In this document: piece after piece, positions 10,544-10,552 of the stretch | Layout of the letters: each line of letters opens with the position of its first letter | Position numbering within the stretch: the stretch's first letter is position 1 | Assembly (NCBI RefSeq): GCF_013122565.1 | Contig: NZ_CP053258.1 | Length of the DNA stretch: 64,000 nt | Origin: Escherichia coli | GTDB taxonomy: Bacteria; Pseudomonadota; Gammaproteobacteria; Enterobacterales; Enterobacteriaceae | Direction: 5' to 3' (one strand) | Program-made: the position numbers and the translations under genes | Notes under the pieces: generated by a model | Told to the model about the DNA's origin: nothing | Databases searched by the model: none | The model's input: the letters and a program-made list of their open reading frames with translations, nothing else

Positions 10544-10552
10544 CCCCCCCCC
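10544..10552. repeat. Homopolymeric C9 tract in yccE-cbpA divergent intergenic region
   Basis: ATGTTCCCCCCCCCACCTTG read directly from sequence. Confidence 0.9.

Follow-up and report, generated by a model that had tools for sequence, protein, structure and literature searches.

The stretch of Escherichia coli DNA analyzed here (the window, 64,000 nucleotides at its full length) carries an unbroken run of nine cytosines between the divergent genes yccE and cbpA. This raises the question of whether the run is a contingency tract, whose slipped-strand length changes would reset the spacing of a promoter as the initial annotation had suggested, or a sequence that arose by mutation at a place where constraint is weak. 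We address this by examining the reality of the run, the mapped regulatory elements that it touches, its distribution across the species, and the series of alleles that leads to it.

The nine-cytosine run and its surroundings

The run is read directly from the window as CCCCCCCCC on the plus strand, and lies between two genes whose names are taken from annotated homologous regions:

9176-10435, minus strand: yccE, 419 aa (QJU24686.1 / WP_171459520.1)
10544..10552, plus strand: C9 homopolymer (G9 on the yccE-sense strand), direct reading, reproduced in an independent assembly
10695-11615, plus strand: cbpA, 306 aa, followed in the window by cbpM

The start of the run is 109 bp from the yccE ATG and its end 143 bp from the cbpA ATG, matching the distances of about 110 and 140 bp in the initial annotation, and the gene coordinates together with the annotated homologous regions bear out its placement in the divergent regulatory region. 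Relative to the cbpA promoter P1, the run occupies -94 to -86 in K-12 numbering and -93 to -85 in the numbering of the window allele.

No other homopolymer of nine or more bases occurs in the 64 kb. The window as a whole is markedly poor in long G/C runs (C5 occurs 20 times, C6 twice and C7 once), and it is this depleted run-length distribution that makes C9 an outlier, since a naive independent-base model, which expects about 0.3 C runs of at least nine per 64 kb (about 0.5 for G or C), would not flag it by itself. G/C runs of eight or more were also absent from 818 kb of E. coli contigs from the same neighbourhood, these contigs being redundant copies of the region. The C7 run, at 63152-63158, is the only other G/C run of seven or more in the window.

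Long-read assemblies are prone to errors at homopolymers, which makes a sequencing or assembly artefact an explanation to be weighed. An assembly artefact is very unlikely, to the point that we set it aside, because the window differs from other strains at the run by three substitutions and no indel, and because the Logan assembly of SRR11451224 is identical to the window across 4,260 bp, C9 included. The run is real.

An Rfam scan of 9000-12500 found no structured RNA at the run. The same scan gave a match to naRNA4, a REP-derived nucleoid-associated RNA, at 11929-12001, between cbpM and torD, on both strands and at 46.9 bits against a gathering score of 59.5; a REP element is the probable source of this match. 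Consensus promoter and terminator scans returned no hits at threshold in either the window or the K-12 intergenic region and did not discriminate the alleles. We rejected several other candidate features: two small ORFs (10432-10608, minus strand, and 10487-10612, plus strand) are broken by 1-bp indels in K-12 and other alleles and have no support, an 8-bp perfect inverted repeat that brackets the spacer (10536-10543/10589-10596) is within chance expectation for 321 bp, and weak GAGG/CCTC quasi-palindromes do not account for the base changes.

Regulatory elements around the run

The cbpA regulatory region was mapped in K-12 by Chintakayala et al., 2013 (PMC3547828), and we projected its elements onto the window by base-for-base identity:

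10399..10434, plus strand: P6 promoter within yccE (TTGCAG 10399-10404, TATATT 10421-10426, start ~10434)
~10493..10548, no strand: projected Fis footprint (K-12 -145 to -90, PMC3547828)
10516-10500, minus strand: MxiE box TGAGCGATTTTTGATAG, 17 bp, overlapping the yccE -35 region, 81 nt from the yccE start
10530..10544, plus strand: primary Fis core GTTTAAAATATGTTC (-7 G to +7 C), equal to the K-12 site at -108 to -94, invariant in 82 sequences
10533..10538, plus strand: P4 -10 hexamer TAAAAT (PMC3547828 Fig S2/S4), with a start at ~10544-10547 inferred from the hexamer position
10545, plus strand: Fis +8 flank position, C in the window lineage and A in the other alleles sampled
10560, plus strand: lineage-private G>A, from comparison with other alleles
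10580, plus strand: lineage-private G>A changing GATGAT to GATAAT, from comparison with other alleles
10602..10635, plus strand: cbpA core promoters (-35 TTGGCA; P1 -10 TACCCT 10625-10630; P2 -10 TACACT 10630-10635)

In K-12, cbpA has a sigma70 promoter (P1) and a sigma38 promoter (P2) with overlapping -10 hexamers, TACCCT and TACACT. The Fis DNase I footprint at -145 to -90 marks an 'insulator' that blocks transcription from P6, a stronger promoter inside yccE with its start at -204, and from P4, a weak Fis-repressed sigma70 promoter whose -10 hexamer TAAAAT lies within the Fis site; cbpA is thereby 'insulated' by Fis from both promoters during growth. Mutation of the outer G/C of the canonical Fis site at -108 to -94 (cbpA-108C-94G) greatly lowers Fis binding (PMC3547828).

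The window matches this K-12 insulator base for base at the primary Fis core, the P4 -10 hexamer, P6 and P1/P2. The core has the G at -7, the C at +7 and the A/T-rich centre expected of a 15-bp Fis site, and its K-12 counterpart was footprinted. The first C of the run is the last base of this core, the -94 C (Fis +7) that is essential in K-12. The window departs from K-12 in the flank, where Fis +8 to +15 are all C, the preferred A at +8 is replaced by a disfavoured C, and the purines at the putative P4 start are lost.

We placed the cbpA P1 +1 at ~10637 from PMC3547828 Fig S2 and the mutation positions -11/-7/-6. The cbpA core promoters are nearly invariant in E. coli, and CCCTACACTTA is kept in other genera. 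The run ends about 50 bp upstream of the P1 -35 element and lies inside no -35/-10 spacer of cbpA P1/P2 or of the yccE promoter; on its other side, the P4 -10 hexamer is 6 bp upstream and the P4 start region falls within the run. The run therefore does touch mapped elements, at Fis +7/+8 and the P4 start, and is outside the P1/P2 and yccE core promoters. The GATAAT created by the 10580 G>A change is a 5/6 match to a -10 hexamer and lies 15 bp downstream of TTGAAG (10556-10582); PMC3547828 reports further sigma70 open complexes in this region, and the change may strengthen a minor promoter.

In the yccE orientation, the run is 27 bp upstream of the MxiE box. The yccE box shown to function in S. 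flexneri (PMC9769918 Table S2) has the same 17-bp sequence at the same 81 nt from the start, and to this extent the window resembles the H-NS-silenced S. flexneri yccE promoter; it differs in carrying the run, outside the box, and its own box is a putative one, recognized by sequence.

yccE is co-regulated with Shigella type 3 secretion effectors (PMC9769918), and its protein has two motifs, VDGDGYCLLRAIL and NTGNHYDVYLP at residues ~203-219 and ~382-392, that resemble the Cys-loop and His-loop of OTU deubiquitinases. Both are conserved in the only distant YccE homologue found (P0165, 25% identity). The one PDB sequence match is to OTUD3, at the loop, and is weak (E 0.61). A Pfam search of YccE gave no hit and a profile search against the PDB gave noise only. 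The family is nearly orphan: a search of 1.84 billion representatives gave 32 hits, most of them to fragments. The AlphaFold model (mean pLDDT 43.5) is too poor for a fold search. On the effector co-regulation and the motif likeness, YccE may be a candidate OTU-like, effector-like protease. Identity with EschOTU was ruled out by the permuted order of that protein, in which His precedes Cys. Many draft assemblies contain YccE as C-terminal fragments from about residue 200-230 (cluster P0003-P0015) that lack the intergenic region; the many C-terminal-only entries indicate that yccE is a frequent place for contigs to end, perhaps because of an IS insertion or repeat in some lineage.

Alleles of the spacer and growth of the run

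To place the window lineage, we compared it with 5,426 complete E. coli genomes, a set that does not include the window itself. Over 25 kb the closest of them is strain PapM-32-1, at 98.5%. In the region of ~22000-25000 (cspH/appA), the window and PapM-32-1 align without interruption, as part of a contiguous 25-kb match. In most other genomes the match is split into two or three pieces across 33-34 kb, and etk and gfcD are annotated there; judging from these matches, the window seems to lack the ~8-9-kb gfc/etk cluster. The 259-bp intergenic region finds its best full-length match among the same genomes at 98.1%, to an E2865-type haplotype from which it has five differences, all within 10545-10580, and a 91-mer around the run is matched at best at 96.7%. 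Exact-protein look-ups for the window lineage recovered the source genome and one Logan assembly and nothing further. The closest other full-length YccE (96% aa) comes with the allele CAGCACCCC.

C9 was found at the site in none of the 5,426 complete genomes and none of 103 metagenome contigs, and the contigs had no run of six or more C there. The alleles were counted with allele-specific 88-89-mers in ~4,250 yccE-positive genomes, of which ~240 have variants outside the named classes:

CAGCAACCC (K-12 type): ~1,881 genomes
CAGCACCCC: ~1,402 genomes
CAACACCCC: 349 genomes
CAGCGCCCC (O157:H7 type): 322 genomes
CAGC7 with a downstream 1-bp deletion: 45 genomes
CAC7: 9 genomes
CAC8 with a downstream 1-bp deletion: 4 genomes
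CAGC6, CAGC6 with the deletion, and CAC7 with the deletion: 1 genome each
C9: 0 genomes

Most strains have interrupted sequences at the site, and six or more C occur in ~61 of the ~4,250 (~1.4%). K-12 has CAGCAACCC at the same place, and its context reads TTC-AGCAACCC-ATCTTGATGGCGACC against TTC-CCCCCCCC-ACCTTGA-AGCGACC in the window. These counts do not sustain the claim of a length-variable repeat across E. coli: C9 is private to one lineage and is not a conserved element. In O157:H7 strain 7636, which has the spacer allele CAGCGCCCC, yccE is annotated as a frameshifted pseudogene.

An alignment of 82 intergenic regions, with nucleotide diversity computed from 71 unselected metagenome contigs, divides the region into four parts:

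10436-10498: yccE-proximal intergenic region, pi 0.037
10499-10545: MxiE box, Fis core and Fis +8, with the P4 -10 within, pi 0.000
10546-10562: hypervariable spacer of 17 bp, Fis +9 onward, pi 0.108
10563-10694: cbpA promoters and 5' UTR, pi 0.0018

The spacer forms the boundary between a high-diversity yccE side and a low-diversity cbpA side, and two of its positions, 10546 and 10548, have three alleles each in the species. The fallback offered in the initial annotation, that the tract is simply part of a curved/GC-poor regulatory region, is not quite right, as the run sits in the only part of the region that is hypervariable and free of constraint.

The edge of this spacer can be compared with measured Fis preferences. 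According to Hancock et al., 2016 (PMC4784862, Table 2), Fis binding responds strongly to the flanking positions ±8 and not significantly to ±9, ±10 or those further out. The best combination is T at -8 with A at +8 (Kd 0.2 nM, half-life 41 min); the '±8G' configuration, with a top-strand C at +8, binds 150-fold weaker with a half-life below 0.25 min, values obtained with both flanks changed and on a core sequence other than that of cbpA. The variable stretch starts at +9, matching this published end of Fis constraint. In the window the -8 position is T (10529) and +8 (10545) is C, which is the '±8G' configuration at +8, so that the favourable T/A pair is lost; A is found at +8 in the other alleles sampled, and C9 is the only one of these with a run that enters the Fis motif.

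About 1,100 complete genomes are without yccE, owing to a 1,262-bp deletion corresponding to window 9271-10532 (for example L003, FDAARGOS_144, 2636-3160). Some ~95 nt at the 3' end of yccE remain, and on the right the deletion stops within the Fis core, 11 bp short of the run site. This one deletion takes away P6, the MxiE box, the left half of the core and most of the Fis footprint. The yccE-less lineage also has C at +8, which fits the pattern of variation bounded by the Fis site but, as a single lineage, is anecdotal. In strain VL40 (L004), an IS1A element replaces yccE and the intergenic region up to ~10567 (junction ~10567/10568), removing the Fis site and the run site and sparing the cbpA core promoters; the adjacent agp has an internal stop.

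The alleles form a graded series, CAGCAACCC, CAGCACCCC, CAGCCCCCC, CACCCCCCC and CCCCCCCCC, in which each later allele has the base just 5' of the C run converted to C. Every intermediate toward C9 exists somewhere, and no out-of-order conversion to C was seen. The same steps occur on different haplotypes: the flanks of the window match the E2865 haplotype, and PCN033 (CAC7), GMF054 (CAGC6) and the 2016C-3878/980-2 group have other flanking haplotypes, with yccE 5-9% different. Between 980-2 (CAC8) and 2016C-3878 (CAGC7), 6 of 3,091 positions differ, one of them a G>C adjoining the run. Because the same steps are found on unrelated haplotypes, the G>C change has arisen at least three times, and A>C likewise. 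Few spontaneous substitutions in E. coli are as rare as G:C>C:G transversions, and the recurrence of such a rare change at one position points to a templated process. Growth is one-sided, toward the 5' side of the plus strand, and the 3' ACC never changed; this 5'-ward growth and the negative GC skew of the plus strand suggest that it follows the direction of leading-strand synthesis, which would be consistent with slippage on the nascent strand.

From this pattern we infer both a mutational route and an ancestral state, in which C9 would derive from CAGCACCCC through three single-base changes (A>C, G>C, A>C), each just 5' of the run, with the last converting Fis +8 from A to C. The nascent strand would slip within the run and then realign, lengthening the run by substitution. 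Such dislocation at homopolymers is an established cause of flanking substitutions (e.g. PMC3105016, PMC3643592). In its stepwise, one-sided flanking substitutions with later indel slippage, the cbpA series resembles an early stage in the birth of a microsatellite or homopolymer by substitution. It differs in that the series is drawn from the genomes of a single bacterial species, arose in parallel at least three times, and has its mechanism deduced from the pattern. The recurrent parallel transversions could also come from selection instead of mutation bias. The outgroups E. whittamii, Escherichia sp. E1V33, two cryptic-clade 'E. coli', Citrobacter and Salmonella matched in the core promoter and 5' UTR only, and E. 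albertii, E. fergusonii and an E. coli representative gave no match to the pattern used; the ancestral state is not fixed by the outgroups that did match, since they have no orthologous spacer.

At six to eight C, single-C gains and losses would set in. MRY15-117 and MRY15-131 have a single difference in 12,088 bp, C7 versus C6 in the run, and 980-2 and UID2309220003 differ in 3,091 bp by one SNP and C8 versus C7; in both pairs the single-C difference could be a long-read homopolymer error in one assembly. Slippage-proneness of the run is plausible. The lineage of the window is C9 in both of its assemblies (window and SRR11451224). In 49 genomes (45 CAGC7 and 4 CAC8; L009, L006, L147 and relatives), the run is longer by one C and a single base is deleted 12 bp downstream (GGCGACC to GGGACC), bringing the intergenic region back to 259 bp. 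This pairing could be a coincidence, a single complex event or the sign of a spacing constraint. Against a strict constraint, intergenic length ranges from 258 to 260 bp among strains, with the K-12 form (~1,881 genomes) at 260 bp and two genomes at 258 bp.

Competing explanations and possible effects on the Fis insulator

We favour, with a probability of about 0.7, the reading that the run is a homopolymer private to one lineage, which arose in a hypermutable spacer under weak constraint at the promoter-proximal edge of the Fis insulator, with no programmed switch. The explanation originally suggested, slipped-strand mispairing that alters promoter spacing, would in its full form be a reversible on/off switch of cbpA or yccE, and is best judged against known systems. 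Promoter contingency tracts include the C-stretch of Bordetella pertussis fim2/fim3 and the poly-C/poly-G tracts of Neisseria opc/porA, which lie between an activator site or -35 element and the -10 element, are present in essentially all strains, and set expression by their length. The run shares with these a G/C homopolymer of about nine nucleotides in a regulatory region beside a regulator site, with related alleles shifting by one C, and nine C is within the range of frequent slippage (~8 or more G/C). It differs in belonging to one lineage, in lying ~50 bp upstream of the P1 -35 element, and in a setting where natural 1-bp variation is common.

A switch of this kind would be expected as a species-wide repeat with length polymorphism; 98.6% of yccE-positive genomes lack a long run and none has C9, and K-12, in which the regulation was mapped, is itself the +1 form. 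Nor does the run set promoter geometry, as its overlap is confined to Fis +7/+8 and the P4 start; at -93 to -85 of P1 and 27 bp upstream of the MxiE box/-35 it is within no -35/-10 spacer of cbpA P1/P2 or yccE, so a change in its length would not reset core promoter spacing. The common alleles, with their 258-260 bp of intergenic length, show no sign of on/off consequences, and the two assemblies of the lineage agree on C9. We find a reversible switch improbable on these grounds, despite the regulatory location and the single-C differences between near-identical C6-C8 isolates. The slippage half of the original proposal keeps some support from those isolates, and the half concerning promoter spacing does not stand. 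The tract is neither constant in length nor wholly outside mapped elements, yet slipped-strand regulation is not supported either, and homopolymer phase variation in E. coli is not demonstrated at this locus.

Selection could have acted on the bases themselves instead. If the growth of the run, especially the +8 A>C step, had been selected for a weaker insulator or P4, it would alter growth-phase expression of cbpA or yccE, and the hypervariability of the spacer would be diversifying selection on regulation. The overlap with Fis +7/+8 and the otherwise invariant +8 agree with this, as do the choice of the '±8G' change, the most damaging to Fis of the flank changes, the recurrence of the same steps on different haplotypes, the +1/-1 length compensation, and the +8 C of the yccE-less lineage, which is without P6 and half of the Fis core. 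However, long-C alleles are rare (~1.4% of yccE-positive genomes) and scattered, a single lineage reached +8, and most steps would be Fis-neutral because positions from +9 outward have no measurable effect on Fis; we regard adaptation as unlikely, though worth keeping in view. A related and more speculative idea, to which we give a small chance, is that the 17-bp spacer is a mutational hotspot made by the nucleoprotein complex itself (for example Fis-trapped RNA polymerase from P6/P4, or sharply bent DNA, in collision with replication), where repeated transversions in one direction build up a homopolymer; in the window lineage the run would have partly broken the insulator and varied the growth-phase control of CbpA. 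There is scarcely more than a slim prospect that the five private differences were imported as a gene-conversion patch from a divergent donor, or are the scar of a yccE insertion or deletion. They do fall within 36 bp while the other 223 bp are of the E2865 haplotype (P ~0.002 for five uniformly placed sites in so small a span, by our own calculation), the endpoints of the yccE deletion (10532/10533) and of the IS1-associated event (~10567) adjoin the run, and the spacer separates the high-diversity yccE side from the low-diversity cbpA side. But no donor-like sequence is present in the 5,426 genomes or the metagenome contigs, three of the five changes are the very steps by which the run was extended independently on other backgrounds, and the remaining two, both G>A, are unremarkable transitions in a lineage that stands ~1.5% apart from all other genomes.

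If the run has a functional consequence, the most probable one comes from its sequence and not its length. The P4 -10 hexamer is conserved (10533-10538), and the A and G at 10545/10546 are C in the window; a sigma70 promoter such as P4 would be expected to start at a purine 6-8 nt downstream of its hexamer. On the published Fis data, +8 A>C is predicted to weaken Fis binding, and would both weaken and shorten Fis occupancy of the primary site. A weaker Fis complex would in turn loosen the growth-phase insulation of cbpA from the intragenic P6. With about three Fis dimers on the array, and the change confined to a single flank of a single site, such loosening would probably be modest. Loss of the putative purine start bases at 10545/10546 would handicap initiation at the already weak P4. 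C9 is possibly a mild cis-regulatory variant.

The cbpA Fis insulator and the yccE MxiE box are already described, and there is no new regulatory mechanism here. We did not find the C9 allele, the graded series, or the coincidence of the variable stretch with Fis tolerance described in the literature searched. If the homopolymer was born by mutation as we propose, the locus would provide a clean natural series of homopolymer birth, with repeated one-sided substitutions followed by indel slippage, set in a spacer whose borders coincide with the measured sequence tolerance of a Fis site; and C9 would be the one E. coli allele predicted to hold Fis less stably at the cbpA insulator.
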